A stretch of DNA of 64,000 nt, taken from positions 5,627 through 69,626 of the forward strand of contig JACPKQ010000016.1 in assembly GCA_016186995.1 (NCBI GenBank). Reading direction: 5' to 3'. Below the pieces are notes generated by a model. The model was not told the DNA's origin and searched no databases. It saw only the letters and a list, made by a program, of their open reading frames with translations. Positions 12,486 to 50,422 of this stretch are shown piece after piece. This DNA comes from Deltaproteobacteria bacterium (GTDB taxonomy: Bacteria; Bdellovibrionota; JACOXK01). Within the stretch, counting starts at the first letter, position 1. The number at the start of each line of letters is the position of its first letter. A program made the position numbers and the translations under genes.

Positions 12486-12510
12486 AATGGCATAATAACA
12501 AGCTTGCTTC

Positions 12511-19611: not shown

Positions 19612-19633
19612 CAGGGAACAAATGAATCCATGA

Positions 19634-19707
19634 GAGAATTGGGGCGCTGTTTTTTGCGCACGTTTAGGAGCAAAAAATATGCCCCCAATTCAGAAGCAAG
19701 GTTGTAT
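19634..19707. repeat. 74-bp hairpin repeat (copy 2), inverted relative to 12511..12586
   Basis: Exact reverse complement of the 12511..12586 element. Confidence 0.8.
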
Positions 19708-19715
19708 TTAAAATA

Positions 19716-19770
19716 CTGGATTCCCGCCTCCGCGGGAATGACAGAAGGGGCCTGCAGGGATGACAGAGGA
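19716..19770. repeat. palindromic element 'ctggattcccgcctccgcgggaatgacagaa...gggatgacagagg'
   Basis: Perfect palindrome ggattcccg/cgggaatcc around a short loop. Same family as 1835..1893, 31145..31173 and 37839..37894, and related to the cores of 50204..50362 and 54170..54335. Confidence 0.7.
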
Positions 19771-22857: not shown

Positions 22858-22859
22858 TT

Positions 22860-23862: not shown

Positions 23863-23863
23863 A

Positions 23864-24358: not shown

Positions 24359-24656
24359 TCTTTATTTCTTCCTTACTATAAGTGCTCTTCTCTTCAGCTT
24401 GGGTATTACCGCTATTTTTTATAGAAAAAATATTATCGCAATTCTTATTGGGGTGGAACTTGTTCTTAATGCAGCTTCTTTAAATTTTGTCGCTTTTTCA
24501 AGATTTACACAATCTCATCTTCATGGCCAAGTCTTTGCTTTATTTATTATTATCATTGCAGCTGCTGAAGCAGCCGTTGCACTGGCTATTGTTTTAAGAC
24601 TTTTTCAAACAAAAGAAACCATTGATGTGGAGGAAGCAAACGCGCTTAGAAATTAA
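24348..24656 (+). CDS. nuoK: NADH-quinone oxidoreductase subunit K (cluster 1)
   Basis: 102 aa; ILIGVELVLNAASLNFVAF...IIIAAAEAAVALAIVL is the NuoK/ND4L signature. Confidence 0.85.
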   Translation: MINNLYFFLTISALLFSLGITAIFYRKNIIAILIGVELVLNAASLNFVAFSRFTQSHLHGQVFALFIIIIAAAEAAVALAIVLRLFQTKETIDVEEANALRN

Positions 24657-26818
24657 TGGACATGATCAAACTTTCATTACTTATCGTAACTCTTCCACTC
24701 ATAGCTTTCACCATTCAAATTCTTGTGGGTAAGCGCCTACCTCGAGATGGAGATTTTATTTCTCTTGCAAGTATTTTTGTTTCTTGGATTTTATCCCTTA
24801 AGCTTTTGTGGAATGCTTTTTCTCTTTATGATCCACAACTTAAAATCACAAAAGAATGGCTTTGGTTTGATTTGGCGCGGTTTTCAAGTGATTTAGACAT
24901 TTTTGCTTTAAAACTTCCTGTGGGCATTCTTTTAGATAATGTTTCAATTCTTATGCTTGTGGTTGTGACAACGGTCAGTTTTCTTGTGCACTTTTATTCA
25001 ATAGGTTATATGAAGGGTGACGCTCATTATTCACGATTTTTTGCCTATCTTTCTCTGTTTTCTTTTTCCATGCTTGGGCTGGTACTGACAGACAATCTTT
25101 TTGTTCTTTATATTTTTTGGGAGCTTGTTGGGGTGTGCTCTTATCTTTTGATTGGTTTTTGGTTTGAAAAGAGAAGTGCTGCTAATGCTTGTAAGAAGGC
25201 TTTTTTAACAACACGTGTGGGAGATATTGGCCTGTTCATTGGTATCATGATGGTCTTCACCACATTAGGAAGTGTTTCTTATTCCTCAATCTTTGAAGCG
25301 AAAGCTTCCGGGCTTTTTTCTGGTGTTTTCGGAACGATTGCCGGGCTTTGTATTTTTATGGGTGCTGTTGGGAAAAGTGCTCAGTTCCCACTTCACATTT
25401 GGTTACCTGATGCCATGGAAGGCCCAACACCGGTAAGCGCTCTTATTCACGCTGCCACCATGGTTGCCGCTGGTGTTTATCTTGTGGTTCGTCTTTTTGT
25501 CTTTTTTACTCCCGATGCGCTTCTCACAATCGCTTATGTGGGTGGATTCACCGCTTTGTTCGCCGCCACGATGGCTCTAACCCATCAAGATATAAAAAAA
25601 GTTTTAGCTTATTCAACTGTTTCCCAATTAGGGCTTATGATGCTCGCCTTAGGTGTGGGTGCCTACACAGCGGGTTTCTTCCATCTTGTGACTCACGCTT
25701 CTTTTAAAGCTTGTCTCTTCCTTGTTTCAGGAAGCGTGATTCATGCTCTTCATGGTGAACAAAATCTTTTTAAAATGGGTGGGCTTCGGAAAAAAATGCC
25801 CCTTACCTTTGGAACGTGCCTTATAGCAACACTTGCTATTGCAGGAGTTCCTTTATTTTCAGGTTTTGTGAGTAAAGATCAAATTTTAGCAGGCACTCTC
25901 TCTTTTGCTTATAACCATCCTCCACATTCTCTTCTTGCTTTTTTCGGTTTTGGGGCTTCGGCTCTTACAGCTTTTTATATGTTTCGGTTACTCTTTCTAA
26001 CTTTTTTTGGAAAACCACGCGATGAAAAACTTTATTCTCATGCACATGAATCATCTTTTGTAATAACACTTCCCCTTATTATTTTAGCTATTCTAAGTTT
26101 GGGGTTTATCTACGAAAAACAAAATTGGTTTGAACACCTTATTCAAAAGCCTCAACTCATTGCTATAAAATCAAGTGTTGTTGTGGCACCTAATTCCGAG
26201 ACACTACCTATTTTTAAAAAAATCAAAGAAAAAACAAAAGAGAATGTGGATCCTTCGGCTACGCCTCAGGATGACAGAGAGGTTCTCGGGGATGACGTAA
26301 AAGATCAACCACAAGTTGCCTATGTTGAGCCTCATAAAACAGAAAATGAAAAGAAAGCACACACACAAGCTATGGTTGCCTCTGTATTCTTTGCCTTTTT
26401 TTCTATTTTCTTAGCATGGCTCTTTTACATTCAAAGAGTTATAGATCCGGAAAAAGTTTCAGAAAAATATAAATCTGTTTATAATACATTAGTAAATCTT
26501 TATTGGATTGATGAGGCTTATCAATTTCTTTTTATTGGACCACTTATTAAAATAAACAATTTTCTCTATAAAAAAATAGATTCAGAAATTATTGACCAAG
26601 GGTTTATCGATAGGAGCGCTTTAATCACCGTCAAAACAGCACACGCGCAAGGCGATTTTGATAATACTGTCATTGACCGTGGTGTTGATGGCACAGCCCA
26701 CACTGTGTTTTCGGGGGGACTAAAACTTGTTCGAATCCAAACAGGCCAAGTTCAAGATTATCTTAAGATTGGTTTAGGTCTTGTGATTATTTTACTGATT
26801 GCATTTATACTGATGTAG
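24656..26818 (+). CDS. nuoL: NADH-quinone oxidoreductase subunit L (cluster 1), with ~100-aa charged insertion
   Basis: WLPDAMEGPTPVSALIHAATMVAAGVYL is the antiporter-like core. 720 aa versus 625 aa for the cluster-2 copy. The extra low-complexity segment KKIKEKTKENVDPSATPQDDREVLGDDVKDQPQVAYVEPHKTENEKK lies before the C-terminal helix. Confidence 0.85.
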   Translation: MDMIKLSLLIVTLPLIAFTIQILVGKRLPRDGDFISLASIFVSWILSLKLLWNAFSLYDPQLKITKEWLWFDLARFSSDLDIFALKLPVGILLDNVSILMLVVVTTVSFLVHFYSIGYMKGDAHYSRFFAYLSLFSFSMLGLVLTDNLFVLYIFWELVGVCSYLLIGFWFEKRSAANACKKAFLTTRVGDIGLFIGIMMVFTTLGSVSYSSIFEAKASGLFSGVFGTIAGLCIFMGAVGKSAQFPLHIWLPDAMEGPTPVSALIHAATMVAAGVYLVVRLFVFFTPDALLTIAYVGGFTALFAATMALTHQDIKKVLAYSTVSQLGLMMLALGVGAYTAGFFHLVTHASFKACLFLVSGSVIHALHGEQNLFKMGGLRKKMPLTFGTCLIATLAIAGVPLFSGFVSKDQILAGTLSFAYNHPPHSLLAFFGFGASALTAFYMFRLLFLTFFGKPRDEKLYSHAHESSFVITLPLIILAILSLGFIYEKQNWFEHLIQKPQLIAIKSSVVVAPNSETLPIFKKIKEKTKENVDPSATPQDDREVLGDDVKDQPQVAYVEPHKTENEKKAHTQAMVASVFFAFFSIFLAWLFYIQRVIDPEKVSEKYKSVYNTLVNLYWIDEAYQFLFIGPLIKINNFLYKKIDSEIIDQGFIDRSALITVKTAHAQGDFDNTVIDRGVDGTAHTVFSGGLKLVRIQTGQVQDYLKIGLGLVIILLIAFILM

Positions 26819-26827
26819 GAGGACTTT

Positions 26828-28393: not shown

Positions 28394-28399
28394 AAAGTC

Positions 28400-29872
28400 A
28401 TGTTAGAAACATTATCATTCATCCTTCCTGAACTTTCCCTAACACTCACTTTGTGTACTCTTTTACTTGTCGGACTTAAATTTAAAAATAAATTTCTTCT
28501 TTATAGTCTTGTCAAAATGGGTGTATTGGCTACTTTTATTTTTCTTGTGTGGGGTGGTGGTGGATATTTAAATAGTGTTTCTATTTTTTCCAACAGTTTA
28601 AGTATCGATCCTTTATCTCGATTTTTTAAAATACTCATTCTTTTCCCAACACTTTTTTGTTCTTGGTTTGCTTTAAATTCTTACGAACTTCACGAAAAAT
28701 CCCATATTGAAGCGCTTCTCCTCATATTAGGAAGCACTTTAGGAATGTTTTTTCTTGTAAGCAGCAGTGATCTTCTTATGATTTATCTCTCACTTGAGAC
28801 GGTAAGCATTTTCTCTTATGTTTTAGCAGGTATTCGAAAAAAACATGCTCTTTCCAATGAAGCTTCCGTCAAATACATGATTTTCGGTACTTTTGTAAGT
28901 GGTGGTATGCTGTATGGTTTGAGTCTTCTTTATGGCATGACAGGGTCTCTCAACCTTTTAGATATTGCTACCCAACTTAAAGATTACAACACCCATGATT
29001 TTTCACTTTTATTTATATCTCTTCTTATTTTTGGTGGATTTGCTTACAAAATTTCTGCGGTTCCGTTTCATATGTGGACGCCAGATGTCTATGAAGGAGC
29101 GCCCACACCTATTACAACCTTTTTCTCAACAGCTCCTAAAGTTGCTGGATTTGCAGTTCTTATTCGATTTTTTTATGTTGTTTTTTCAACTCAGATGACA
29201 GAAGGGGGTGTTACAATATGGGCAACTACTGATTTACACTGGCCTGAGATAGTAGCTCTTCTTTCAGCTATAACTATGACAGTAGGTAACTTTGCTGCTC
29301 TTTCTCAAACTAATGTCAAAAGACTTTTAGCTTACTCAACCATTGCTCATTCTGGATATATCCTCATGGGTTTTGTCGTTCTTGGGGTGGAGGGGCTTGA
29401 AGCCGTCCTCTTTTATACCCTTGTTTATATTTTTATGAAATTAGGAGCCTTTTTTGTAACTCAATGTGTAGGTAATAAATTTAAAAATGAAGAACTGAGC
29501 TCATTTAAAGAAATTGGGTGGAAATCCCCTCTTCTAGGAATCAGCATGACCCTTTTTCTTTTTGCTCTTATTGGACTTCCTCCTACAAGTGGCTTTATAG
29601 GAAAATTTTATCTTTTTAATGCTGCTCTTCACAAAGGTTTACTCTGGCTTGTCATTGTTGCTATTTTTAATTCTGTCGTTTCTCTTTATTATTACGCGAA
29701 AATTCTTAAGGCACTGTACCTTGAGAAAAGCGAAAAAGAGTTTTCATTTACACTTAACTTCTTTGACTCCTACGTTCTTGTCTTTCTTTCGGTAGCTGTT
29801 ATGCTCCTGGGGATTTACGTTGAACCTTTCATCCACTGGGTTAAAGCATCAGTTTATTTTATTGTTGGATAA
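28400..29872 (+). CDS. nuoN: NADH-quinone oxidoreductase subunit N (cluster 1)
   Basis: VPFHMWTPDVYEGAPTPITTFFSTAPKVAGFAVLIR is the NuoN/ND2 motif. Confidence 0.85.
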   Translation: MLETLSFILPELSLTLTLCTLLLVGLKFKNKFLLYSLVKMGVLATFIFLVWGGGGYLNSVSIFSNSLSIDPLSRFFKILILFPTLFCSWFALNSYELHEKSHIEALLLILGSTLGMFFLVSSSDLLMIYLSLETVSIFSYVLAGIRKKHALSNEASVKYMIFGTFVSGGMLYGLSLLYGMTGSLNLLDIATQLKDYNTHDFSLLFISLLIFGGFAYKISAVPFHMWTPDVYEGAPTPITTFFSTAPKVAGFAVLIRFFYVVFSTQMTEGGVTIWATTDLHWPEIVALLSAITMTVGNFAALSQTNVKRLLAYSTIAHSGYILMGFVVLGVEGLEAVLFYTLVYIFMKLGAFFVTQCVGNKFKNEELSSFKEIGWKSPLLGISMTLFLFALIGLPPTSGFIGKFYLFNAALHKGLLWLVIVAIFNSVVSLYYYAKILKALYLEKSEKEFSFTLNFFDSYVLVFLSVAVMLLGIYVEPFIHWVKASVYFIVG

Positions 29873-29875
29873 AAA

Positions 29876-30256
29876 ATGGCGTATCAAACTCACGAATACA
29901 TTGCCGTTGGAATGCTTTTTCTTTTTGCAGCACTCGTTGCTACTTTAATCTTGATTGCTACACATCTTTTGGGTCCTAAAATTAAAGACCCAGCTAAAAT
30001 GCGTCCTTATGAGTGTGGCCCTGAGCCACAGGGAACGCCACGTCATCAATTTTCTGTTCATTTCTATATCATTGCCATTTTCTTCATTCTTTTTGATATT
30101 GAGGCTGTTTTTATGTATCCATGGGCTGTGATGTTTAAAAAGTTTTTAATCCTGCAAGGATTTGTCATTATTCTTGATATGGTTGTATTCATTGGTATTT
30201 TAGCTGTTGGTTTTATTTATATTTGGAAAAAGAAGGCACTTGAATGGGATTTATAG
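29876..30256 (+). CDS. nuoA: NADH-quinone oxidoreductase subunit A (cluster 2)
   Basis: YECGPEPQGTPRHQFSVHFYIIAIFFILFDIEAVFMYP. Confidence 0.85.
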   Translation: MAYQTHEYIAVGMLFLFAALVATLILIATHLLGPKIKDPAKMRPYECGPEPQGTPRHQFSVHFYIIAIFFILFDIEAVFMYPWAVMFKKFLILQGFVIILDMVVFIGILAVGFIYIWKKKALEWDL

Positions 30257-30696
30257 ACAGAATTAAAGACGGAAAGCTAGAGGTTTCCGCCGATGATATG
30301 AAATCATGCGTGTGGGAATTTAAAGAAGCGGGGTTTTCTTATCTTTCTGATCTTACAGCCAGAGACAATTATCCAGAAAAGCCTCGGTTTCATGTCATTT
30401 ATATTCTTACTCATATGAAAGAAGGAAAATCTATTATTCTTAAAGTTCCTCTTCCAGAAGAAAACCTTCATATTTTGACCATTACTGATATTTGGCCTGG
30501 TGCTAATTGGTTAGAAAGAGAAGCCTTTGATATGTTTGGAATTATTTTTGATGGACATCCCAACCTTACAAGAATTTTGGCTTCGAGCTCTCAAAGCTGG
30601 AGTGGGCGTGGGACAGAAGACTACCCATTAAGAAAAGATTACAACCTTATCCAACGCCCTGGAGATGATAAAACAGAAAAAAATGAAAAATACTGA
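30244..30696 (+). CDS. nuoC: NADH-quinone oxidoreductase subunit C (30 kDa subunit), short form
   Basis: LTITDIWPGANWLEREAFDMFGIIFDGHPNLTRIL is the NuoC signature. No nuoB before it and no nuoD after it. Confidence 0.75.
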   Translation: MGFIDRIKDGKLEVSADDMKSCVWEFKEAGFSYLSDLTARDNYPEKPRFHVIYILTHMKEGKSIILKVPLPEENLHILTITDIWPGANWLEREAFDMFGIIFDGHPNLTRILASSSQSWSGRGTEDYPLRKDYNLIQRPGDDKTEKNEKY

Positions 30697-31144
30697 TCAG
30701 AAATACATTGAAGAAATTTTTTCTAGATACCCTAACAAGCGGGCAGCAACCCTCCCACTTTTAACGCTTGCACAAGAAAGATTTGGATACATTTCAAAAG
30801 AAGCCTGTGTGTGGGTTGCAGAGCTTATTGGGGTTTCCCCTATGGAAGTTCATGAAACAGCAAGTTTTTACACCCTGTATTATTTAGAACCTGTGGGCAA
30901 AAATAAAATTAAACTATGCACTAATGTTTCTTGCATGCTTTTAGGGGCTAAAAAAATTGAAAAAACCTTAAAAAGAAAATTGGGTTTAAAAAAGAAAGGC
31001 ACTACAGAAGATAAAAAATTTCATTTTGAAACAGCAGAATGTTTAGGTTATTGCGATAAAGCCCCTGTGATGCAGATAAATACCGAAACATTTGAAAAAA
31101 TTTCTGATGAAAAGGTAGATGAAATTTTAAAAAAATATGAATAG
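30665..31144 (+). CDS. nuoE: NADH-quinone oxidoreductase subunit E (24 kDa, [2Fe-2S])
   Basis: Cys ligands in CTNVSCMLLGAKK...TAECLGYCDKAPVMQIN. Confidence 0.8.
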   Translation: MIKQKKMKNTDQKYIEEIFSRYPNKRAATLPLLTLAQERFGYISKEACVWVAELIGVSPMEVHETASFYTLYYLEPVGKNKIKLCTNVSCMLLGAKKIEKTLKRKLGLKKKGTTEDKKFHFETAECLGYCDKAPVMQINTETFEKISDEKVDEILKKYE

Positions 31145-31173
31145 TGGATTCCCGCCTTTGCGGGAATGACATT
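31145..31173. repeat. palindromic element ggattcccgcctttgcgggaatgacattgg between nuoE and nuoF
   Basis: 9-bp perfect stems ggattcccg/cgggaatcc; family of 19716..19770. Confidence 0.7.
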
Positions 31174-31180
31174 GGATTTT

Positions 31181-32455
31181 ATGGAAAAATATTTTCTTAA
31201 AAATATTGGTAAAAAAGACTCACACAAGCTTTCTACTTATGAAGAAAGTGGTGGGTATCAAACTATTCAAAAAGTTTTTAAACTTGAACCCCAAAAAGTC
31301 GTGGAAGAAGTAAAAATCTCTGGTCTTCGTGGATTAGGGGGTGCAGGATTTCCTACAGGAATGAAATGGGGTTTTATTCCTAAAAATATTTCTCCCAGAT
31401 ATCTTGTCTGCAATGCAGATGAAGGGGAGCCAGGCACTTTTAAAGACAGATGGCTTATGGATAACGACCCCCACCTTCTCTTAGAAGGTATTATGATAGC
31501 AAGTTACGCACTTGATATTCATACAGCTTATATTTTTATTCGCGGTGAGTTTTACAATGCAACTCAAAAAGTAAAAGAAGCCATCAAAGAATGTTATGAA
31601 CAAAAATATTTGGGTAAAAATATTTTTGGGAAGAGTTTTGATCTTGATATTTATGTTCATAGTGGCGCAGGGGCTTATATTTGCGGTGAAGAAACTGCAC
31701 TTTTAGAAGCTTTGGAGGGCAAACGCGGACTTCCACGAGTAAAACCACCCTTTCCAGCCATTGAAGGGCTTTTTGGAAAACCGACAGTTATTAATAACGT
31801 TGAAACCCTATGTGGAGTTAAGCTTATCTTAGAACATGGGGCGAAGTGGTACAAAAGTGTGGGAACTGAAAAAAATCCTGGTTACAAACTTTTCCCAATT
31901 AGTGGACATGTGAACAAACCGGGCGTTTATGAACTTCCTTTTGGAATGCCAGTTCAAGAAATTATTGAAAAATATGGTGGTGGAGTCCCAGAAGGAAGAA
32001 AAATTAAAGGGGTTATTCCAGGTGGATCAAGCTCTGGTGTTTTAACAGCTTCGGAACTTAATACACCTATGGATTTTGAAACCTTCCGTGGAAAAGGGAT
32101 GATTCTAGGAACCGCTTCTATCATTGTGATGGATGAAACAACAGATATGGTTGAGATTCTTCATAACATTATGCATTTTTATGCTGAAGAATCTTGTGGG
32201 CAGTGTACACCTTGTCGAGAAGGCACGATGTGGAGCTATAAAATTTTGAATCGTCTCATGAAAGACGAAGGAACACGGGAAGATATTGAAACCTTAAAAA
32301 GAATAGCGAAAAATATCAGTGGCACAACACTGTGTGCCTTAGCTGATGGTGCTGCCATTCCTTTAAAAGGATTTGTAGAAAAATTTCCAGAAGATTTTGA
32401 AAAAAGAATACGAGCACCTAGAAGAGAAACACCTAAACCGGTGATTATGCGATGA
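31181..32455 (+). CDS. nuoF: NADH-quinone oxidoreductase subunit F (51 kDa, FMN/NADH-binding)
   Basis: GLRGLGGAGFPTGMKWGF (FMN site), NADEGEPGTFKDR, and the C-terminal Cys cluster ESCGQCTPCREG. Start chosen at MEKYFLKN, after the repeat. Confidence 0.85.
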   Translation: MEKYFLKNIGKKDSHKLSTYEESGGYQTIQKVFKLEPQKVVEEVKISGLRGLGGAGFPTGMKWGFIPKNISPRYLVCNADEGEPGTFKDRWLMDNDPHLLLEGIMIASYALDIHTAYIFIRGEFYNATQKVKEAIKECYEQKYLGKNIFGKSFDLDIYVHSGAGAYICGEETALLEALEGKRGLPRVKPPFPAIEGLFGKPTVINNVETLCGVKLILEHGAKWYKSVGTEKNPGYKLFPISGHVNKPGVYELPFGMPVQEIIEKYGGGVPEGRKIKGVIPGGSSSGVLTASELNTPMDFETFRGKGMILGTASIIVMDETTDMVEILHNIMHFYAEESCGQCTPCREGTMWSYKILNRLMKDEGTREDIETLKRIAKNISGTTLCALADGAAIPLKGFVEKFPEDFEKRIRAPRRETPKPVIMR

Positions 32456-33507
32456 CGCTTACTATTTTGTTAGTTACATTACTTAAAGTTCTTGTTCTTT
32501 CTTTTGTTGTCATCAATGTTGTTCCACTCATGACATGGGTTGAAAGAAGAGGAAGTGCTTTTATACAAGGCCGTATTGGTCCAAATCGTGTAGGGCCTTT
32601 GGGGCTTTTTCAACCTATAGCCGATGGTATCAAATTCATCATGAAAGAGGATACTTATTATCCTCATGTTGATAAAATTCTTTTTATCATTGCCCCAGCT
32701 TTAGCCCTCATTCCTGCTATATTAGCGTTTGCCGCCATTCCTTTTGGCCCACAATTTACGTTGTGGGGATACACAACCGCTCTTCAAATTGCTGATATCA
32801 ATATTGGGGTTATTTATGTTTTGGCTATCGCCTCTTTAAGTATTTATGGAATTCTTTTAGGTGGCTGGGCCTCTAATAATAAATACAGCTTTTTAGGAAG
32901 CGTTCGAAGCAGTGCTCAGATGATTTCATACGAAGTTGCCTTGGGCCTTTCTATTGTAGGGCTTCTGATGATTTATGAAACCACTAGTTTAAAAGACATG
33001 GTCTTAGCACAATCAGTTCCTTTGTGGGGAGTTTTACCTAAATGGGGAATTTTTACTCAACCTGTGGCTTTTCTTCTTTTTTGGATTTGTATATTTGCCG
33101 AAACAAACAGACTTCCTTTTGATTTACCAGAAGGCGAGACGGAGCTTGTAGCAGGCTATCACACCGAATATTCAGGAATGAAGTTTGCACTTTTTTTTAT
33201 GTCTGAATATATGGCTATGTTTACAGGAAGCGCCCTTGCGGCCACCCTTTTTTTAGGTGGCTGGGCTTTCCCACCCGGCATTCAGGAATGGATTCTCAAC
33301 TTTGGCCTTTCTAGAAATTTATTTGCTTTTATATGCTTTATCAATTTTATGATTAAGGTTGCGTTCTTCTTATGGTGTTTTGTATGGGTGAGGTGGACCT
33401 TCCCACGATTTAGATATGATCAACTTATGAAATTAGGTTGGAAGTTTATGATACCTGTTGCTCTTTTAAATATTTTAGCTACAGGATTTGTCATATACGG
33501 GGCTTAA
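32452..33507 (+). CDS. nuoH: NADH-quinone oxidoreductase subunit H (cluster 2, intact)
   Basis: GRIGPNRVGPLGLFQPIADGIKF...GGWASNNKYSFLGSVRSSAQMISYEV...TNRLPFDLPEGETELVAGYHTEYSGM. Confidence 0.85.
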   Translation: MTLTILLVTLLKVLVLSFVVINVVPLMTWVERRGSAFIQGRIGPNRVGPLGLFQPIADGIKFIMKEDTYYPHVDKILFIIAPALALIPAILAFAAIPFGPQFTLWGYTTALQIADINIGVIYVLAIASLSIYGILLGGWASNNKYSFLGSVRSSAQMISYEVALGLSIVGLLMIYETTSLKDMVLAQSVPLWGVLPKWGIFTQPVAFLLFWICIFAETNRLPFDLPEGETELVAGYHTEYSGMKFALFFMSEYMAMFTGSALAATLFLGGWAFPPGIQEWILNFGLSRNLFAFICFINFMIKVAFFLWCFVWVRWTFPRFRYDQLMKLGWKFMIPVALLNILATGFVIYGA

Positions 33508-33511
33508 AACG

Positions 33512-33997
33512 ATGGAACACATACTTTTTTATGTTATAAGTGGTTTAGCAATTATAAGTGCTTTAAGCGTTATTCTGAATAAAAACCCTGTTTATTCAGC
33601 TTTATCACTTGTAGGTTTTCTTTTTGTTCAAGCCATCCTTTTTGTACTTCTCAAAGCTTATTTTATAGCTATTGTACAGGTGCTTGTTTATACGGGTGCC
33701 ATTATGGTGCTTTTTGTTTATGTTGTTATGGTTATGAAGCTAAATGAAGAACTTCTTCCTCGTATTCGCTTAAGACCTTTTAGTCTTTTTCTTGCTGGGC
33801 TTTTTGCTTCTTATCTATTTTATATTTTTTCAAAAACACCCACTTTTTCACATCCTGTTTTAAAAACAGGCGATATTTCAGAAATAGGAGAGCTTTTATT
33901 TTCAAAATATGTACTTCCTTTTGAAGTCATTAGCTTATTGTTACTTGTTGCTATGGTAGGGGCTGTTGTTTTAAATAGGAAAAGCAAACATGAATGA
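33512..33997 (+). CDS. nuoJ: NADH-quinone oxidoreductase subunit J (cluster 2)
   Basis: Paralog of 23864..24358 (VQVLVYTGAIMVLFVYVVMV). Start at MEHILFYV just after the nuoH stop. Confidence 0.75.
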   Translation: MEHILFYVISGLAIISALSVILNKNPVYSALSLVGFLFVQAILFVLLKAYFIAIVQVLVYTGAIMVLFVYVVMVMKLNEELLPRIRLRPFSLFLAGLFASYLFYIFSKTPTFSHPVLKTGDISEIGELLFSKYVLPFEVISLLLLVAMVGAVVLNRKSKHE

Positions 33998-34283
33998 GTA
34001 TTTTATTTTAGCAAGTATTCTTTTTGCACTTGGAGTCACAGGTGTTCTTATGAGACGCAATCTTTTGGTTATTCTTATGTCTGTTGAGATCATGCTTGCA
34101 AGTAGTAATCTTGCTTTGATTGCAGCTTCTTCTCATGTTGGCAATTTACACGGACATATTTTTGTACTTTTTAATATTGCTGTTGCCGCTGCTGAAGCAG
34201 CTGTAGGCCTTGCTTTGATTGTTATTATTTATAAAAATAAAAAGACCGAAAACGTTGATCAGTTTACATCACTTCACGGATAA
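33990..34283 (+). CDS. nuoK: NADH-quinone oxidoreductase subunit K (cluster 2)
   Basis: ILMSVEIMLASSNLALIAAS...NIAVAAAEAAVGLALIVI. Confidence 0.85.
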   Translation: MNEYFILASILFALGVTGVLMRRNLLVILMSVEIMLASSNLALIAASSHVGNLHGHIFVLFNIAVAAAEAAVGLALIVIIYKNKKTENVDQFTSLHG

Positions 34284-34423
34284 TTAAAAAAACAGCCCAT
34301 CTAAAGCACCACCCCCAAACTGAAAACCCCAATCCCACTTCTGTCTTTAAAATTTCTTTACTTGCCAGCCCAAGAGGAGGCGTGTAGCTTTGTTCAAGTC
34401 ATTGAGATTATAGGGGAAACCTG

Positions 34424-36301
34424 ATGTCTTCATACTTGATTTACGTTGCACTTTTAAGCCCTTTTTTAGGGTTTTTAATACAGATTTTTTTAGGTGGAAA
34501 GCTTTCCAAAACTATTTCTGGAACAATATCTTCTCTTGCTGTTTTTGTTTCGTTTTTAGCAAGTCTTTTTCTCTTTTTTGAGTTCCACAATGTCAGCTTT
34601 TCCCATACACTTTTCTCTTGGTTTGATATTGGAGATTTCAAAGCAGATTTTTCCGTAAAAATAGACCAGCTATCCCTTCTTATGATGCTTGTTGTAACAG
34701 GTATCAGTACTTTAATTCATATTTATTCAACAGGTTACATGCACGAAGATCCGCTTTTTTCTCGTTACTTTGGTTACTTAAATCTTTTTGTATTTATGAT
34801 GCTTACCCTTATTATGGCAGACAATCTTCTTCTTATGTTTGTGGGCTGGGAGGGTGTTGGTTTGTGCTCTTATCTTTTGATTGGTTTTTGGTTTGAAGAT
34901 GATTTTAAAGCTTTTTGTGGAAAAAAAGCATTTATTGTTAATAGAATTGGGGATGCTGCCTTTATTTTAGGAATTTTTCTTATTTTTTCTTTATTTGGAA
35001 CGCTTGAGTTTGAATCTCTTTACACTTCTACTTTAAACCGCTCCCCTGAAATGGGCTTTGGTCTTCTTTCTTGCATCACTCTTTTTCTTTTTATAGGCGC
35101 AACAGGAAAAAGCGCACAAATTCCTCTTTATGTATGGTTACCAGATGCCATGGCAGGCCCAACCCCTGTTTCAGCTCTTATTCATGCTGCTACCATGGTA
35201 ACAGCCGGTGTGTATATGATTTGTCGCTTGAGCTTTTTTTATGATCTAACACCCATTGTTCAAAATATTATTATTGTGATCGGAATGGCTACAGCGATTC
35301 TTTCAGGACTGATTGCTCTTACACAAAAAGATATTAAAAAAGTTTTAGCTTATTCAACGGTTTCTCAATTGGGCTATATGTTTGTTGCAGCTGGCCTCGC
35401 AGCTTATGGGGCTGCCATGTTTCATCTGACAACACATGCTTTTTTCAAAGCCCTTCTTTTTCTTTGTTCAGGAAGTGTCATTCATGCCATGAACGGGGAG
35501 CAAGATATGTTTAAAATGGGCGGGCTTAAAAATGTCATGCCTATTACTTACCTTTCTTTTCTTGTGGGGGCCTTAGCGCTTTCAGGTATTCCCCCTTTGG
35601 CGGGTTTCTTCAGTAAAGATACTATACTTGCATTTGCCTTTGCAAAATCCCCCCTTCTTTGGGGATTAACTGCTTTCACAGCACTTCTCACTTCTTTTTA
35701 TATTTTTAGAGCTTTATCTCTCACCTTTCATGGAAAATTAGGCAATATTCATGCTCATGAATCCCCTAGTTCTATGACTGTTCCTCTTGTTTTGCTTTCT
35801 TGTGGAACATTGCTCGTTGGTTTTTTAGGACTACCCCCCATGTTTTCTCACCTTTTTCATGTTGAAAATCTGTTTGAAAAATTCTTGGGATGGGAATCCT
35901 CTCTTCACCTTTCAGGGCAAACAGAGTGGTTTTTGATGGGTGCGTGCTCAGCATTGGTCATACTCACCGCCTACACAGCCACAAAGCTTTTTAGTGGAGA
36001 CAAAGCAAAAGTAACAGCGCTGAAAAACAAATTTTCAAAACTTCACACACTTTCAGAAAATAAATTTTATGTGGATGAGTTTTACGATCTTGTTTTTGTG
36101 AAAACTGCACACAAGAAAGCTCAGTTTTTTTGGGAAAAAATTGATATTTTTGTGATTGATGGAATAGTCAACGGCGTTGGATCACTAGGAAGAAATCTTT
36201 CAATACTCTTGAGCCTTATTCAAACGGGAAGGGTCATTAATTATGCCTTTATGATGTTTTTAGGTATGATTTTAATTCTTCTTTATTTAGTGAAGTTGTA
36301 A
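34424..36301 (+). CDS. nuoL: NADH-quinone oxidoreductase subunit L (cluster 2)
   Basis: WLPDAMAGPTPVSALIHAATMVTAGVYM. Preceded by an unusual 140-nt intra-operon gap. Confidence 0.85.
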   Translation: MSSYLIYVALLSPFLGFLIQIFLGGKLSKTISGTISSLAVFVSFLASLFLFFEFHNVSFSHTLFSWFDIGDFKADFSVKIDQLSLLMMLVVTGISTLIHIYSTGYMHEDPLFSRYFGYLNLFVFMMLTLIMADNLLLMFVGWEGVGLCSYLLIGFWFEDDFKAFCGKKAFIVNRIGDAAFILGIFLIFSLFGTLEFESLYTSTLNRSPEMGFGLLSCITLFLFIGATGKSAQIPLYVWLPDAMAGPTPVSALIHAATMVTAGVYMICRLSFFYDLTPIVQNIIIVIGMATAILSGLIALTQKDIKKVLAYSTVSQLGYMFVAAGLAAYGAAMFHLTTHAFFKALLFLCSGSVIHAMNGEQDMFKMGGLKNVMPITYLSFLVGALALSGIPPLAGFFSKDTILAFAFAKSPLLWGLTAFTALLTSFYIFRALSLTFHGKLGNIHAHESPSSMTVPLVLLSCGTLLVGFLGLPPMFSHLFHVENLFEKFLGWESSLHLSGQTEWFLMGACSALVILTAYTATKLFSGDKAKVTALKNKFSKLHTLSENKFYVDEFYDLVFVKTAHKKAQFFWEKIDIFVIDGIVNGVGSLGRNLSILLSLIQTGRVINYAFMMFLGMILILLYLVKL

Positions 36302-37909
36302 ATGGATTTATTGTTAAAACATTTTTTAAGCATTACTATTTTCTTACCGGCCCTTTTTGGCCTTTTTCTTTTTTTTATACCTCAAAGTAAAACAAGGTTT
36401 TTAAAATTTGTTTCTTTAAACGGAAGTATTCTTACCTTTTTAATGACCCTTGGCATTTTGTGTTATTTTACAGGAACGGCTGAAGTACAATTTGTTGAAA
36501 AATATTCCTGGATACCTCTTTTTGGGGTTTCTTATTTTATTGGTATCGATGGTTTAAGCCTTTATCTTTTTATTCTTACAAGTTTTTTGACACCCCTTGT
36601 TCTTCTTTATGTATCTCCTGAAGAAAAAAAGCTAAAACCCTTTTTGATTCTTATTTTATTTTTAGAAACGGCTATGCTCGGTACTTTTGCAGCGCTTGAC
36701 CTTATTCTTTTCTACATTTTTTGGGAGGCCATGCTCATCCCCATGTATTTTATGATTGGAGTGTGGGGTGGGGAAGAAAGGCTGTACGCAACGATCAAGT
36801 TTTTGCTTTATACCATTCTAGGAAGCTTCTTAATGTTAGTTGCCTTGATTGCACTTGTGATGATTCACCATTCAACAACAGGTGTTTTTACAACAAATCT
36901 TTTAAAACTTTATGGCACACCATTAGGCTCTTTAGAAATGTGGTTGTTTTTAGGATTTGCTCTTGCCTTTCTTATTAAAGTGCCCCTTTTTCCTTTTCAT
37001 ACATGGTTGCCTGATGCACACGTTCAGGCTCCCACAGAAGGAAGCGTCATTTTAGCAGGGATTTTACTTAAAATGGGTATGTATGGACTTTTTCGTTTTG
37101 CTTTGCCTTTATTCCCTCAAGCAAGCATGGCGGTGACACCTTATGTTGTTACCCTTGCGCTTATAGGAATTATTTATGGTGCTTTTCTGGCCTGGGCTCA
37201 AAAAGATCTTAAAAAACTTGTGGCCTATTCAAGTGTCAGTCACTTAGGTTATGCAGTGCTAGGGCTTTTTGTTTTAAACCATACAGGGGTTACAGGAAGC
37301 TTAGTTCAAAATATCTCTCACGGGCTTGCCACAGGGGCACTCTTTTTTATTGTTGGAATGATTTACAAACGTACTCACACAAAGAAAATTGAAGAATTGG
37401 GTGGGCTTGCAAGTTCATGTCCTAAACTTTTCTTTTTCTTTCTCATTGCAACATTGGCAAGTATTGGTTTACCCCTTACAAGTGGTTTTGTAGGTGAGAT
37501 CCTTTGTCTTTTTGGAGCTTTCCAAGAATATGGCGTACAGGGTTTTGCGTGGGGTGGGGAAACTTTGATCAACATAAGAAATATTATTTTTGGAACAGTG
37601 GGCATTCTTGGCGTACTTATGGGTGCTATCTACATGCTTAATATGTTTCAAAAAGTAATGTTTGGAAAACCAAAATTTGAAGATTTGAAAGATCTTGAAT
37701 GGAAAGAGGTTTTAGTTTTAACACCTTTAATTATTATGATTTTCTCAATTGGGGTGTACCCAAAATTGCTCACAAACAAGATGGAAAATTCTATCGATCA
37801 TCTTGTTAAAAACGTTTATAAATATTCGTTAACAACTTTGTCATTCCCACCCGAAGCTCTCGGCACAAGCGGGAACCCAGAAAGCGAAGCTACCTCTAAA
37901 AAGGATTAA
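36302..37909 (+). CDS. nuoM: NADH-quinone oxidoreductase subunit M (cluster 2) with repeat-encoded C-terminal tail
   Basis: FPFHTWLPDAHVQAPTEGSVILAGILLKMGMYGLFR. The last ~23 aa (LSFPPEALGTSGNPESEATSKKD) are encoded by palindromic element 37839..37894 and are absent from the cluster-1 NuoM. Confidence 0.85.
   Translation: MDLLLKHFLSITIFLPALFGLFLFFIPQSKTRFLKFVSLNGSILTFLMTLGILCYFTGTAEVQFVEKYSWIPLFGVSYFIGIDGLSLYLFILTSFLTPLVLLYVSPEEKKLKPFLILILFLETAMLGTFAALDLILFYIFWEAMLIPMYFMIGVWGGEERLYATIKFLLYTILGSFLMLVALIALVMIHHSTTGVFTTNLLKLYGTPLGSLEMWLFLGFALAFLIKVPLFPFHTWLPDAHVQAPTEGSVILAGILLKMGMYGLFRFALPLFPQASMAVTPYVVTLALIGIIYGAFLAWAQKDLKKLVAYSSVSHLGYAVLGLFVLNHTGVTGSLVQNISHGLATGALFFIVGMIYKRTHTKKIEELGGLASSCPKLFFFFLIATLASIGLPLTSGFVGEILCLFGAFQEYGVQGFAWGGETLINIRNIIFGTVGILGVLMGAIYMLNMFQKVMFGKPKFEDLKDLEWKEVLVLTPLIIMIFSIGVYPKLLTNKMENSIDHLVKNVYKYSLTTLSFPPEALGTSGNPESEATSKKD
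37839..37894. repeat. palindromic element (inverse orientation copy of the 1835..1893 family) forming the 3' end of nuoM-2
   Basis: tgtcattcccacccgaagctctcggcacaagcgggaacccagaaagcgaagctacc aligns at roughly 75% identity (by eye) to the reverse complement of 1835..1893. Confidence 0.7.
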
Positions 37910-37910
37910 A

Positions 37911-39326
37911 ATGGTAGAAACAAGTTTAAAATTGATGCCACTTCTTGCTCTTGCAGGTGGATCTTTTTTAGTTTTACTTTACGAAGTTTTTTCAAAAAAA
38001 TTAAAATCCTATTCTTTTTTTCTTTCACTTCTTATTCTTGGTATAAGCGGTTATTATATAATAACTCTTTTTGGAAGCGGTGAAATCACTCTTTTTGAAG
38101 GATTTCTCACCCTTAATAATTACTGGCTTTTTGTAGCAGGCCTTATTGTTTTTGTAAGTTTCTTTACCCTTCTTCTTTCTTACCCTTACAAAGGTCTTAA
38201 AAATGAATACTACTTTCTTATTTTAATAGCAGCGCTTGGCATGAGTCTTATCCCTGCAACATGGAATTTTTTGACTCTCTTTTTAGGAGTAGAACTTCTT
38301 TCTCTTTGTTTTTATATTCTTGTAACATACCAAACCAGTAATTTGAGAGCCAATGAAGCAGCTCTTAAATATTTTATATTGGGCGCTTTTGCAGCTGGTT
38401 TTTTTGTTTTTGGAATTGCTCTTATTTATGCAGCGACAGGCTCTTTCTCAATGAAAGATACATCTTCTATACTTCTTACCCCGGAAGTAAATATGACTTA
38501 CCTCACAATAGGGATTGCTTTTATAATTGTGGCTTTAGGTTTTAAAATAGCATCTGCTCCTTTTCACATGTGGACACCTGATGCCTATGAAGGAGCTCCA
38601 ACACCCATTACTTCTTTTATGGCAACAGGGGTTAAAGTTGCTGCCTTTGCAGCTCTTTATCAGATCTTTTTTGTTTACTTGGCTCCGCTTAAAACACATT
38701 GGGAGTTTGTCTTTTATGCTTTGTGTATTTTAACCATGTTTGTTGGAAATTTAGGGGCTCTTATTCAAAAAAATGTGAAAAGACTTTTAGCTTATTCTTC
38801 TATTGCTCATGCAGGTTATCTCCTCATTCCTTTTGTAAGCTATACTTTTAATACAAAAATAGAGGCATCCACTTCTCTTTTTTATTATTTAGTTATTTAC
38901 TGCATTATGAACATCGGTGCTTTTGCAATTGTTATTGCTTTAGGTCAAGAAGACATAGATGATTATGCAGGGCTTAGCTCCAAAAAACCTTTGACCGCTT
39001 TAGTTTTTTCGCTTTTTCTTCTTTCTTTAGCAGGTTTTCCACCCACAGCAGGATTTTTAGCTAAGTTTTTTATTTTTGCTGCAGCTCTTCAAACAAAATT
39101 TTATTGGCTCGTTGTTTTAGCTGTTATTAACGCTTTTATAGCCATTTATTACTACACAAAAATTATTGTCACTATGTATATGAAAGAATCTGAAGTATCC
39201 GAGACAAAAACATCTTTTCACCCTTTACTTATTGTGACTCTTGTTATTATGGCAGCACTCACACTTTACCTAGGCATAAAACCAGATCTTCTTTTAAATT
39301 TAATCAAAAACTCTTTGTTTTTTTAA
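37911..39326 (+). CDS. nuoN: NADH-quinone oxidoreductase subunit N (cluster 2)
   Basis: APFHMWTPDAYEGAPTPITSFMATGVKVAAFAALYQ. Confidence 0.85.
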   Translation: MVETSLKLMPLLALAGGSFLVLLYEVFSKKLKSYSFFLSLLILGISGYYIITLFGSGEITLFEGFLTLNNYWLFVAGLIVFVSFFTLLLSYPYKGLKNEYYFLILIAALGMSLIPATWNFLTLFLGVELLSLCFYILVTYQTSNLRANEAALKYFILGAFAAGFFVFGIALIYAATGSFSMKDTSSILLTPEVNMTYLTIGIAFIIVALGFKIASAPFHMWTPDAYEGAPTPITSFMATGVKVAAFAALYQIFFVYLAPLKTHWEFVFYALCILTMFVGNLGALIQKNVKRLLAYSSIAHAGYLLIPFVSYTFNTKIEASTSLFYYLVIYCIMNIGAFAIVIALGQEDIDDYAGLSSKKPLTALVFSLFLLSLAGFPPTAGFLAKFFIFAAALQTKFYWLVVLAVINAFIAIYYYTKIIVTMYMKESEVSETKTSFHPLLIVTLVIMAALTLYLGIKPDLLLNLIKNSLFF

Positions 39327-46196: not shown

Positions 46197-47202
46197 AGTT
46201 TATTTAGGTCACAATGAACTTTCTTTCATTTCTCAAACTTTAAATAAAAATTCTTATTCTTGTTTTTTCTTTGTTATTTCTCATTCAGTTCCTAAAACTT
46301 ATATAAAAAAAATAATTGGTTCTTTAAACAAAGAATATATTCTTTTTTATATTAAAGACGGGGAAACAAATAAAAACTTTTCTCAATTTAAAAAAATATT
46401 AAATGAATTGTTTAAAAATAAATTAGATCGGGAAAGTGTACTTATTTCTATTGGTGGTGGATCACTCAATGATTTAGCTGGTTTTTGTGCCTCTATTTAC
46501 CTTCGCGGTATTGATTGGATGACAATTCCCACAACGCCTCTTTCTCAAATGGATGCATCCATGGGTGGAAAAACAGCACTTAATTATCAAGGTAAAAATA
46601 CAATTGGGAGTTTCTATCTTCCCCACTCCATTTTTATTGATACTATTTTTTTAAAAACAGTTTCTAAAACCATTTTAAAAGAAAGCTTTTCAGAAATGAT
46701 AAAAATGGCTTTGGGTTTTGATCAAAAACTTTATTCATTACTTTTAAAAAAAGATCTTTCTCAAACAAACAATCTTCACAGAGTTTTTACAAGATGTATC
46801 CAACTTAAAGAAAAGGTTGTCATTCAAGATTTCAGAGAAAAAAAAGGTTTAAGACAAAAACTTAATTTTGGTCACACTTTAGGTCATGTTTTTGAGCAAT
46901 CTCAAAAAATAAGCCATGGCAAAGCAGTTCAAGAAGGTTTAAAAACAGCGCTTTTTCTTTCTAAAAAGTTGCGATGTTGCACCCCAAAAACATATGATAA
47001 GTGTATAGAATTATTAAATAAATTTAATACCAATGGGATGACTACATTTCCCCCTTCTCAAACCATTAAGAAATTTCTTTATAAAGATAAAAAAAGAAAA
47101 AAGGGTGAGATTGATTTTATCTTTTTAGAAAAAATAGGTACACTCAAAGTAAAGAAAATTCAGATTTCAGAGTTAATAAATTATGTATCAAGCTATTCTT
47201 AA
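46168..47202 (+). CDS. aroB: 3-dehydroquinate synthase
   Basis: ISIGGGSLNDLAGFCASIYLRGIDWMTIPTTPLSQMDASMGGKTALN is the NAD/metal-binding core of DHQS. Confidence 0.8.
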   Translation: MKLIANKLSKVYLGHNELSFISQTLNKNSYSCFFFVISHSVPKTYIKKIIGSLNKEYILFYIKDGETNKNFSQFKKILNELFKNKLDRESVLISIGGGSLNDLAGFCASIYLRGIDWMTIPTTPLSQMDASMGGKTALNYQGKNTIGSFYLPHSIFIDTIFLKTVSKTILKESFSEMIKMALGFDQKLYSLLLKKDLSQTNNLHRVFTRCIQLKEKVVIQDFREKKGLRQKLNFGHTLGHVFEQSQKISHGKAVQEGLKTALFLSKKLRCCTPKTYDKCIELLNKFNTNGMTTFPPSQTIKKFLYKDKKRKKGEIDFIFLEKIGTLKVKKIQISELINYVSSYS

Positions 47203-47932
47203 TTTTTATGTTTCTCTTTTTCTTATAATGAGCGTGGCATGTCCACTTTTAATATCTTTACTGTATTCTTTATTCTTTAAAAAAATTTCATCTGAGATGG
47301 ATCACCACGTTGGTGGATCTCTTCTTCTTCATAAAAAATTAAGAAATTGGTGGATTGCAATTATAAGTCCCTTGGAAAGTACTCTTTTTAAAACAAAACT
47401 TTCTTCAAATACTTTAACTCTTAGTGGGCTATTTTTAAGCTTTGTATCGGGCATCCTTTTTTCTTATGGATATATTAGTTTAGCCGGAGCAGCTCTGATT
47501 CTTAATGCTGTTTTTGATATTTTAGATGGTCGAATTGCACGTCGAAGAAACAAAGCAACAAGAATGGGTGCTTTTTTAGATAGTTTTTGTGACCGAATAG
47601 GTGAAATTTTTATTTTTACTGGGCTTCTTCTTTTTTTTAGACTCACTTCTGTTTTTCATATTGTTCTCATTATTCTTTTAACTTCATTTTTGATTAGTTA
47701 TGCACGAGCACGGGCTGAAGGCCTTGGATTTTATACAAAGGTAGGGCTTATCCAAAGGGCCGAAAGACTTTTCATTTTGATCATAGCAAGCTGCACAAGC
47801 CCTTTTTTTGAGGTTTTTGGGTTTGGAGAGTTTACAATACTTATTGCAGCTCTTGATATTTTAGCAATTTTAAGTGTTTTTACGCTGTTTCAAAGGTGTT
47901 TTTCTATATATTCTTCACTGCGTTCAGAATGA
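47183..47932 (+). CDS. CDP-alcohol phosphatidyltransferase family protein
   Basis: DILDGRIARRRNKATRMGAFLDSFCDRIGE matches D-G-x2-AR...G-x3-D-x3-D. The stop codon is provided by the first repeat of the 47920..48181 array. Confidence 0.7.
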   Translation: MYQAILNFYVSLFLIMSVACPLLISLLYSLFFKKISSEMDHHVGGSLLLHKKLRNWWIAIISPLESTLFKTKLSSNTLTLSGLFLSFVSGILFSYGYISLAGAALILNAVFDILDGRIARRRNKATRMGAFLDSFCDRIGEIFIFTGLLLFFRLTSVFHIVLIILLTSFLISYARARAEGLGFYTKVGLIQRAERLFILIIASCTSPFFEVFGFGEFTILIAALDILAILSVFTLFQRCFSIYSSLRSE

Positions 47933-48181
47933 CAGAGGGGCCGTCCGCAATGACAGAAACTTCGAGTCTATGTGCAGATGACCTTGGCCTGTCATCGCGA
48001 GGGTTCTTAAAGAACCCGTGGCGATCTCAACACGCAAGTGTTGTCCTAGAATTGCTAAAGCAATTCTAGGAGATTGCTTCGCTACGCTCGCAATGACACG
48101 TATCCATGAGAGAGTAGGGACTGGGTGTTTTGTTGCACGTTCAGGAAACAAAACACCCTCCCTACTCAGAACCCAAGTCTG
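47920..48181. repeat. tandem mosaic of three palindromic element types
   Basis: cagaatgacagagg/gcaatgacagaaacttcgag (compare 7917-7940), then tgtcatcgcgagggttcttaaagaacccgtggcgatc...gcttcgctacgctcgcaatgacacg (family of 5396..5480), then gagagtagggactgggtgtttt...aaaacaccctccctactcagaacccaag hairpin (compare 7942-7990). Confidence 0.7.
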
Positions 48182-50137: not shown

Positions 50138-50203
50138 AAGACTAGCTCATATCCATAAAAAATTGAGTTCTACTTAACTTAAAGTTCGAGGTCTTGCGAG
50201 AAA

Positions 50204-50362
50204 ATGATCTGTATCTGGAGCGGAAGTAAAGCGCAGCCCAAAGTTTGTAAATACTCAAAATACTGGATCCCGGATAGTGCCTCGCACTTCCGGGATGACA
50301 GAAAATTCGTGTGGGACAAATACAGCGAGCCATGGAGCGAAAGATATAGATCATTTTAAGAA
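50204..50362. repeat. ~155-bp structured repeat (copy A) with terminal inverted repeats and central ggatcccgga...tccgggat hairpin
   Basis: Aligns along its length to 54170..54335 at roughly 80% identity by eye. Its terminal stems differ between copies but stay complementary (tgatctgtatc/gatatagatca versus ggttactatc/gatagtaacc). Confidence 0.75.
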
Positions 50363-50422
50363 CCTAACCTCTTTAGTAGCAGTCACTTGACCTCATTTCA
50401 AGGCTCGACTAGGATGCCCTCC

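Follow-up and report, generated by a model that had tools for sequence, protein, structure and literature searches.

Why does a subunit of complex I end in a hydrophilic peptide that its closest orthologs do not share? The question is raised by NuoM-2, an antiporter-like subunit M encoded by the gene nuoM-2 in a 64,000-nt stretch of contig JACPKQ010000016.1 (assembly GCA_016186995.1, positions 5,627 to 69,626 of the forward strand), which belongs to a metagenome-assembled genome (MAG) of a Bdellovibrionota-like bacterium and is referred to below as the window. A first-pass annotation had proposed that the end of the protein is translated from a copy of a palindromic repeat. Here we report a computational analysis that confirms the underlying observation and supports this interpretation. 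With a probability of roughly 0.82, the tail arose by in-frame fixation of a hairpin repeat of the type of the Neisseria Transformation Sequence (NTS) and the Ssn-related motif (SRM), and is a probably neutral, disordered extension on the periplasmic side.

The 57-nt repeat copy and the end of nuoM-2

The gene nuoM-2 (36302..37909, plus strand; open reading frame (ORF) list and Pfam) encodes 535 amino acids including the tail. The protein contains a Proton_antipo_M domain (Pfam PF00361, E 3e-74), and its matches in the PDB are NuoM/ND4 chains, with 8qby_M as the best (E 6e-114) and Escherichia coli 3rko_M at E 4e-94. The features of NuoM/ND4 of complex I are present, namely the Glu of transmembrane helix (TM) 5, the Lys of TM7 and TM8, the Glu of TM12, and 14 TM helices, which appear as 14 hydrophobic spans in the hydropathy profile and as helices in an AlphaFold2 model. 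The catalytic residues E142, K226, K257 and E399 are invariant across 43 homologs (alignment A4). The solved NuoM/ND4 chains cover residues 7–504, and all homology stops at about residue 504, before the tail. The terminus reads ...KYSLTTLSFPPEALGTSGNPESEATSKKD and is laid out as ...NSIDHLVKNVYKYSLTT-LSFPPEALGTSGNPESEAT-SKKD-stop, with KYSLTT directly before LSFPPEALGTSGNPESEAT. The stop codon TAA (37907–37909) is followed after 1 nt by the ATG of nuoN-2 (37911..39326, plus strand; ORF list, with orthologous order in the related loci L001, L002 and L128), whose ribosome-binding site AAGGA lies in the SKKD codons, the last four of nuoM-2, and the TAA stop (37895..37909, plus strand).

Codons 513–531 (37838–37894) specify the 19 residues of LSFPPEALGTSGNPESEAT. 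The corresponding block at 37839..37895 (plus strand; TGTCATTCCCACCCGAAGCTCTCGGCACAAGCGGGAACCCAGAAAGCGAAGCTACCT) is a 57-nt decayed long-loop copy of a TGTCATTCCC...GCGGGAAYCCAG hairpin repeat, as judged from its similarity to positions 1834–1890 of the minus strand, its G + C content and its absence from orthologs. The first-pass annotation had assigned the last ~23 residues to the repeat; the origin stands, but only 19 residues (513–531) are repeat-encoded, and SKKD lies outside. In an AT-rich window (35.2% G + C), the block has a G + C content of 57.9% vs 35.7% in the rest of nuoM-2; no other 57-mer of the gene is as GC-rich, and among those of the whole window it ranks in the top 0.2%. Its ungapped alignment with the reverse complement of 1834–1890 has 44 of 57 identical positions (chance expectation ~4e-12 for both strands of the whole window), clustered in the initial 10 nt (TGTCATTCCC) and the final 34 nt (GGCACAAGCGGGAAYCCAGAWAGCGMAGCYACCT). 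The decamer TGTCATTCCC occurs four times in the window, where 0.1 occurrences are expected.

The sister copy at 1834..1890 (minus strand), recognized by similarity and fold, lies inside the gene for a 167-aa protein (ORF 1538..2041, minus strand), where it encodes LSFPSLATGTSGNPDSAAT. It is read in the same frame as the copy in nuoM-2, as had been stated before, and the two peptides are identical at 13 of 19 residues. Since two of the three forward frames in the sister copy contain stop codons and only S-F-P... is open, the shared frame is what survival alone would leave; all three forward frames of the nuoM-2 copy are open. The common frame was thus rejected as evidence beyond the stop-codon filter, and two copies add no further statistical weight. 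In P0122, which is orthologous to the 167-aa protein (64% identity), the repeat peptide is absent and its place is taken by an unrelated linker that is 9 residues shorter. The label 'TadE-like', which the 167-aa protein had been given, is unconfirmed by Pfam; a sub-threshold TadE match was obtained only for the neighbouring ORF 2672..3115.

The two 57-nt copies differ in their folding. The sister copy still forms an extended hairpin (RNA −25.7 kcal/mol, z −4.4; DNA z −2.5), and the copy in nuoM-2 folds no better than shuffled sequence (RNA −11.6 kcal/mol, z 0.0; DNA z +0.2), with about five outer stem pairs (TTCCC/GGGAA) and a small inner CCGA/TCGG stem left. It is best read as a decayed member of the family; the term 'palindromic' used at first suits its ancestry more than its present state.

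The database copy of NuoM-2 (P0001, MBI2608789.1, 'MAG: Deltaproteobacteria bacterium') has the tail. The closest orthologs, with 69–70% identity to NuoM-2, do not share it: those from at least five assemblies, one of them named Bdellovibrionota (P0002, P0124–P0128), end in ...KYSLNIKR, and P0003 ends in ...TYSLNVKRTL, with the next gene beginning 6 nt later. Two further orthologs (P0004, 66–68% identity; P0005, 57–58% identity) have unrelated tails. The alignment of orthologs that had been proposed as a check therefore came out in favour of the repeat. At the DNA level, conservation of the nuoM orthologs ends at the YSL codons, after which 4–6 residues follow in the tail-less proteins. Removal of the 57 nt from the window would leave KYSLTT-SKKD-stop, which is close in length and character to KYSLNIKR and TYSLNVKRTL. 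The gene order nuoL-nuoM-nuoN-HTH-glycosyltransferase-pilMNOPQ is kept in the orthologous loci.

Because the closest orthologs end short, the tail is a lineage-specific gain. An insertion in frame, a few codons before the original stop, is the simplest history because 57 nt are exactly 19 codons, and SKKD with the stop is probably the ancestral 3' end of nuoM-2. The part of the original proposal that speaks of a gain of protein sequence holds at this level; the mobility of the palindrome is what presence in one lineage and absence from others suggests. The paralog NuoM-1, on which the first comparison was based, is only 41% identical to NuoM-2 and was rejected as the key comparison, for which the orthologs are relevant. 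It does end earlier, by 28 residues when measured from the motif in TM14 rather than by ~25.

One other feature of NuoM-2 stands apart from the tail. Residues ~409–421 (~37526–37565) include ~12 extra residues (GVQGFAWGGETLI) compared with the closest orthologs, in the periplasmic TM12–13 loop (predicted local distance difference test score (pLDDT) 65–70), and no repeat match was found for this insert.

Relation to the NTS/SRM hairpin family

NTS is a 28-nt sequence (CGTCATTCCCGCGMAVGCGGGAATCYRG) that contains the old dRS3 repeat and lies within genes in only 2% of cases in Neisseria meningitidis; the degenerate SRM is found across phyla beside genes for Ssn, a small GIY-YIG single-strand DNA nuclease (Nat Commun 2025; PMC11893778). 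On sequence grounds, the elements of the window are assigned to a TGTCATTCCCGC...GCGGGAATCCAG hairpin superfamily that corresponds to the NTS/SRM motif family, in which the two 57-nt copies represent a long-loop variant; a 17-nt 3' extension is private to them.

The remaining two TGTCATTCCC sites of the window are short, canonical copies that form perfect hairpins. One (TGTCATTCCCGCGGAGGCGGGAATCCAG; 19716..19743, minus strand) lies between two ABC-transporter genes and was identified by its fold and its 2 mismatches to the NTS consensus; the other (TGTCATTCCCGCAAAGGCGGGAATCCAC; 31144..31171, minus strand), with 3 mismatches, lies directly past the stop of nuoE-2 (plus strand) and ahead of nuoF-2 (gene identities from Pfam). 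The latter is the only match of the published SRM pattern in the window (0.07 matches expected per shuffled window). Both fold well (RNA z −3.1 and −3.5; DNA z −4.8). A related intergenic long-loop copy (TGTCATCCCGGAAGTGCGAGGCACTATCCGGGATCCAG; 50261..50300, minus strand) was found by alignment with both 57-nt copies.

The window copies have in common with NTS/SRM an oriented 5' flank (C/T)GTCAT, the stem ATTCCCGC/GCGGGAAT and the 3' flank ATCCAG. The 5' flank HGTCWY of the family is represented by TGTCAT at 37839–37844 and in every other copy, and the 3' flank ATCYRG with its critical C by GGGAACCCAG in nuoM-2 (one T to C change) and GGGAATCCAG in the sister. The family stem (ATTCCCGCG / CGCGGGAAT) forms a stable hairpin in the sister and the two short copies, but not in nuoM-2. 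The loop is short in the family (3 nt in NTS, few variable positions in SRM), whereas 21–23 nt separate the arms in both 57-nt copies. The copy in nuoM-2 thus differs from NTS/SRM in its long loop, the 17-nt 3' extension shared only with the sister, the ~5 remaining stem pairs and its intragenic position in a reading frame.

The long-loop form is not restricted to the window. A scan of metagenomes for TGTCATTCCC-N12-26-GCGGGAAYCCAGA recovered at least 120 contigs with long-loop elements, whose G + C contents of 31–67% confirm that the NTS/SRM-type family spans phyla. Many of these contigs have a second hairpin nested in the long loop, and six Ssn-like GIY-YIG ORFs (YYVYILASKRNGTLYIGVT...) are located 18–330 nt from such elements. 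An element with the nested architecture is also present in the related genome L002 (7591–7645), directly after nuoN. A search with Rfam at the gathering threshold gave no match anywhere in the window.

The tail in the protein and its proposed history

In the AlphaFold2 model of NuoM-2 (43 homologs), the mean pLDDT is 91.5 and decreases to 63 for residues 511–520 and ~46 for residues 521–535. Lys and Arg are distributed between odd (inside) and even (outside) loops at 16 vs 3, which gives an N-out/C-out topology, in agreement with the published 14-helix model of subunits L, M and N (PMC3046159); in that model, the lateral helix of NuoL follows the fifteenth span on the cytoplasmic side. Because of the C-out topology and its position after TM14, the tail should be periplasmic according to the model, and the cytoplasmic location that had been suggested for checking was rejected on the grounds of the positive-inside topology and the 14-helix model. 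After the G-x-Y/F-P motif of TM14, NuoM-2 has 48 residues, the tail-less orthologs have 27–29, and 100 homologs have 19–86 (median 46). A hydrophilic tail of such size is ordinary among NuoM homologs; the acquisition first described is a gain, but does not imply a functional consequence. The most likely effect of the tail on the protein is none. It is presumably translated in vivo as part of NuoM-2, and its predicted tryptic peptide is YSLTTLSFPPEALGTSGNPESEATSK.

We propose that a REP-like hairpin repeat of the NTS/SRM type, 57 nt long and with a long loop, became fixed within the last codons of nuoM-2 in a Bdellovibrionota-related lineage. It would have landed in forward orientation and in a stop-free frame, and a length that is a multiple of three would have retained SKKD, the stop and the tight coupling to nuoN-2, with LSFPPEALGTSGNPESEAT as the gain of NuoM-2. 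The added residues would come after TM14 and a short helix of amphipathic character and hang into the periplasm as a disordered segment of mildly acidic composition, in a region that is naturally hypervariable in NuoM. Most likely, the insertion is a tolerated passenger, and drift of the DNA since its arrival may have cost the copy its stable hairpin.

Several results weigh against this history. Between their conserved ends, the two 57-nt copies have 13 nt that are nearly unrelated, and no target-site duplication or other insertion footprint was found at the copy in nuoM-2. With two 57-nt copies only, the boundaries and the copy number of the element are weakly defined. No further 57-nt copy was found in the GTDB species genomes, a collection that does not contain the genome of the window; the scan for GGCACAAGCGGGAAYCCAGA gave four matches in unrelated genomes, as expected by chance, of which the one inspected had no TGTCATTCCC upstream. 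Among the matches listed in a metagenome scan with a looser pattern, none shared more than the hairpin core with the 57-nt form. From 1.84 billion representative proteins, a 40-aa profile of the two sequences retrieved no more than three repeat proteins, which are unrelated and of the '...SLAIGTDGNPVISY' type; in an index of 5.8 billion proteins, the same profile gave no candidate, an uninformative null as the source proteins were missed too. No ssn gene (single-domain GIY-YIG, cd10448) was detected in the window, L001, L002 and L128 (118 kb; motif pattern, tblastn with an Ssn-like query, and Pfam on 10 small ORFs).

The alternative that survives best, although we consider it unlikely, places the arrival of the repeat outside the gene: the copy would have landed in the short nuoM–nuoN spacer past the stop, which was later lost, so that readthrough to the next TAA made SKKD out of former spacer. 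The short hairpin in the same operon that starts directly past the stop of nuoE-2 is a precedent for such a landing site and shows how a displacement by a few bases separates translated from untranslated repeat copies. In the lineage of P0002/P0124, the nuoM–nuoN junction contains a 282-nt intergenic insert with palindromes, and the three open frames of the nuoM-2 copy would also suit this route. However, an element of exactly 19 codons, a remainder (KYSLTT-SKKD-stop) that is like the orthologous ends in both length and character, and the lack of a relic stop codon between KYSL and the element argue for insertion within the gene.

It is less probable still that a hairpin at this junction is kept for a role as nucleic acid, be it stabilization or processing of the nuoM–nuoN mRNA or a site for Ssn or recombination, with translation as an incidental consequence. 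Such a role would explain why different palindromic or GC-rich DNA occurs at the nuoM 3' end or the nuoM–nuoN junction in the window, L001, L002 and L128/L003, that is, why several related lineages have different palindromes at the end of nuoM, and the long-loop element directly past nuoN in L002 would fit as well. Yet the copy in nuoM-2 folds like shuffled sequence, the tails of L001 and L002 have no significant structure (z −1.3 and +0.5), scans for terminator-like and promoter-like sites found none overlapping the element, and the P0003 lineage, the one with a tight junction free of insertions, has only 6 nt between nuoM and nuoN. The recurrence is equally expected if gene ends are the sole permissive landing sites in a compact operon.

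Recruitment of the tail for a function, with selection at the protein level for, e.g., periplasmic contacts with a neighbouring subunit or the envelope, is very improbable. The 13 of 19 residues shared by the two carrier proteins, and a frame that stayed open while the DNA hairpin decayed, could be taken in this sense, but the identity of the peptides merely mirrors that of the DNA, and two of the four substitutions in the conserved 3' half are non-synonymous. Moreover, the tail is predicted to be disordered, the closest orthologs function without it, and its length and sequence are unconstrained across NuoM homologs.

A sequencing or assembly artefact that hides an upstream stop, a concern raised by the origin from a MAG and by repeats as classic sites of misassembly, can practically be dismissed, since an independent Logan assembly yields the identical 535-aa protein including the tail (P0123), the genes on both sides of the junction follow the orthologous order, only 1 nt separates the stop from the nuoN ATG, with the Shine-Dalgarno sequence in place, and the sister copy is open in the same frame in a protein (P0121) recorded from both NCBI and Logan on two contigs.

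In-frame fixation of an NTS/SRM-type repeat, as preferred here, has parallels in other bacteria. Rickettsia palindromic elements (RPE) have been reviewed as 'selfish DNA in protein-coding genes', in-frame repeats that add peptides to housekeeping proteins, as ERIC and other miniature inverted-repeat transposable elements (MITE) likewise do (PMC10969869). The case of nuoM-2 resembles RPE in the presence of a palindromic repeat in frame in a housekeeping gene, with a conserved peptide, a single frame, a permissive exposed or disordered site and an apparently functional host protein. As in the RPE type, the repeat is read in the same frame in two unrelated proteins, each with a 19-residue peptide that its orthologs lack. 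RPE are, however, ~100–150 bp long and belong to other families in Rickettsia, whereas the window element has 57 nt, is of the NTS/SRM type and resides in a Bdellovibrionota-like MAG; to judge from length and host descriptions, the relation would be one of functional analogy only. According to what Delihas is said to have described in 2007, intragenic ERIC and MITE copies create or extend ORFs, and small non-autonomous repeats with open frames become joined to ORFs of the host, so that the ends of the proteins change. The likeness to nuoM-2 is in the repeat-altered protein end; elements and hosts differ. REP/BIME elements with RAYT are similar as short imperfect palindromes at gene ends or between convergent genes, sometimes in clusters (cf. 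window 47900–48180 and 5395–5480), but classical REPs are extragenic by definition and have a GTAG-type 5' tetranucleotide, whereas the 5' motif in the window is GTCAT.

The phenomenon is already known; new are the host lineage, the target (the terminus of a complex I subunit) and the long-loop variant. NuoM-2 offers a clean, datable case of a protein that gained residues from a selfish hairpin repeat, with a tail-less ortholog at hand and, in the same operon, an untranslated repeat copy a few bases beyond a stop codon, and it links NTS/SRM hairpins to the older phenomenon of repeats inside genes in Rickettsia. For annotation, it is a warning: where proteins of repeat-rich uncultured bacteria are extended in loops or at the C-terminus, the extra residues may stem from repeats. 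Knowledge of complex I is unchanged: NuoM varies naturally at its C-terminus, and the tail gained here is probably inert.

Further palindromes in related loci and in the window

Other members of the NTS/SRM superfamily are located in frame in NuoJ of L001 (TGTCATCCTGAGTGAAACGAAGGATCTCAG, in a loop), in the NuoM loop of L002 and in QueA of L127. In L002 (P0005), TGTCATCGCGAGG...CCCGTGGCGATC is read in the periplasmic TM12–13 loop of NuoM (5766–5806) and belongs to the same family as window positions 5395–5436 and 47989–48027; the NuoM tail of L002 contains a decayed CGTCATTACGAGCC...GGCAATCT copy of the family at window positions 48062–48097. The NuoM tail of L001 is GC-rich and partly palindromic; a repeat origin is not claimed, as BLAST against all fetched loci found no second copy. 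L128 and L003 have kept the short NuoM end and contain a palindrome-bearing spacer of 282 nt from the nuoM stop to the nuoN start (L128 11507–11788; also L003 1650–1740), with inverted repeats that in L128 include 19-nt arms at 11568–86 and 11626–44.

Most sampled lineages thus have something inserted at the end of nuoM. This could indicate a hotspot, but a compact, essential operon that tolerates such DNA only at gene ends and in variable loops would produce the pattern equally well. The idea that NTS/SRM and related TGTCAT hairpins behave like RPE in this clade, settling repeatedly in frame at permissive sites of complex I membrane subunits (the loop of NuoJ, the TM12–13 loop and the C-terminus of NuoM, and possibly NuoL) and hitting the nuoM/nuoN junction independently in most sampled lineages, by targeted insertion or selection for a junction hairpin rather than by mere tolerance, appears doubtful.

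Outside the clade, the metagenome contig L127 encodes a QueA (PF02547, E 4e-129) with an NTS-like element in frame (LDSRLRLRGND). It came from a crude screen for ORFs with embedded long-loop elements among the at least 120 metagenome contigs, in which six candidates comprised three spurious-looking ones, the verified QueA and two plausible unannotated ones. QueA of L127 is ~95 residues longer than the Pfam model and has at least one other palindrome-coded insert (CHCEEQRRRSNL).

The nuo genes of the window form two clusters. Cluster 2 (nuoA-C-E-F-H-J-K-L-M-N, 29876–39326) includes nuoM-2, and cluster 1 (nuoA-H-J-K-L-M-N, 22462–29872), directly upstream, comprises membrane subunits only. Between them, these back-to-back clusters (22462–39326) contain no B, D, G and I genes. 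In nuoL-1 (24656..26818), an SRM-like CGTCATCCCCGAGAACCTCTCTGTCATCCTGAGGCGTAGCCGAAGGATCCAC is present on the minus strand at 26251–26300, in reverse orientation and inside a putative lineage-specific insertion (peptide VDPSATPQDDREVLGDDV); its fold has a z of only −1.1. In cluster 2, the first ATG of the nuoF-2 ORF (31166) falls within the hairpin past nuoE-2 (gaATGaca; 31144–31185), and the in-frame ATG at 31181 is more likely as the start of nuoF-2. Between nuoK and nuoL, the window has only ~140 nt, whereas L128 (2483–7595) and L001 (2835–5365) have foreign genes there (DUF6036/AbiEii-like, AAA_14/DUF4143, chloramphenicol acetyltransferase).

Other repeats are scattered over the window. A ~180-nt repeat (two blocks, 83% identity) is located at 50185–50367 and 54144–54328, upstream of two different genes, and one of its copies holds the SRM-like hairpin at 50261–50300. 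An 86-nt repeat with two copies of 97% identity (12493–12578, minus strand; 19625–19710, plus strand) forms a long hairpin (GAATTGGGGC...GCCCCCAATTC, loop GCACGTTYAGGA); it has no Rfam match and could be a MITE or a small RNA. A third sequence at ~48100–48170 has a similar architecture. BIME-like clusters between convergent genes (47900–48180 and 5395–5480) consist of several different TGTCAT-type palindromes (TGTCATCGCGAGG...GTGGCGATC; TGTCATTGCGAGC...GCAATC). The 249-aa ORF 47183..47932 owes its final residues (...SLRSE) and its TGA stop to a hairpin half-site (GCGTTCAGAATGACAG; 47915–47935), which makes it a second repeat-shaped protein end in the window.

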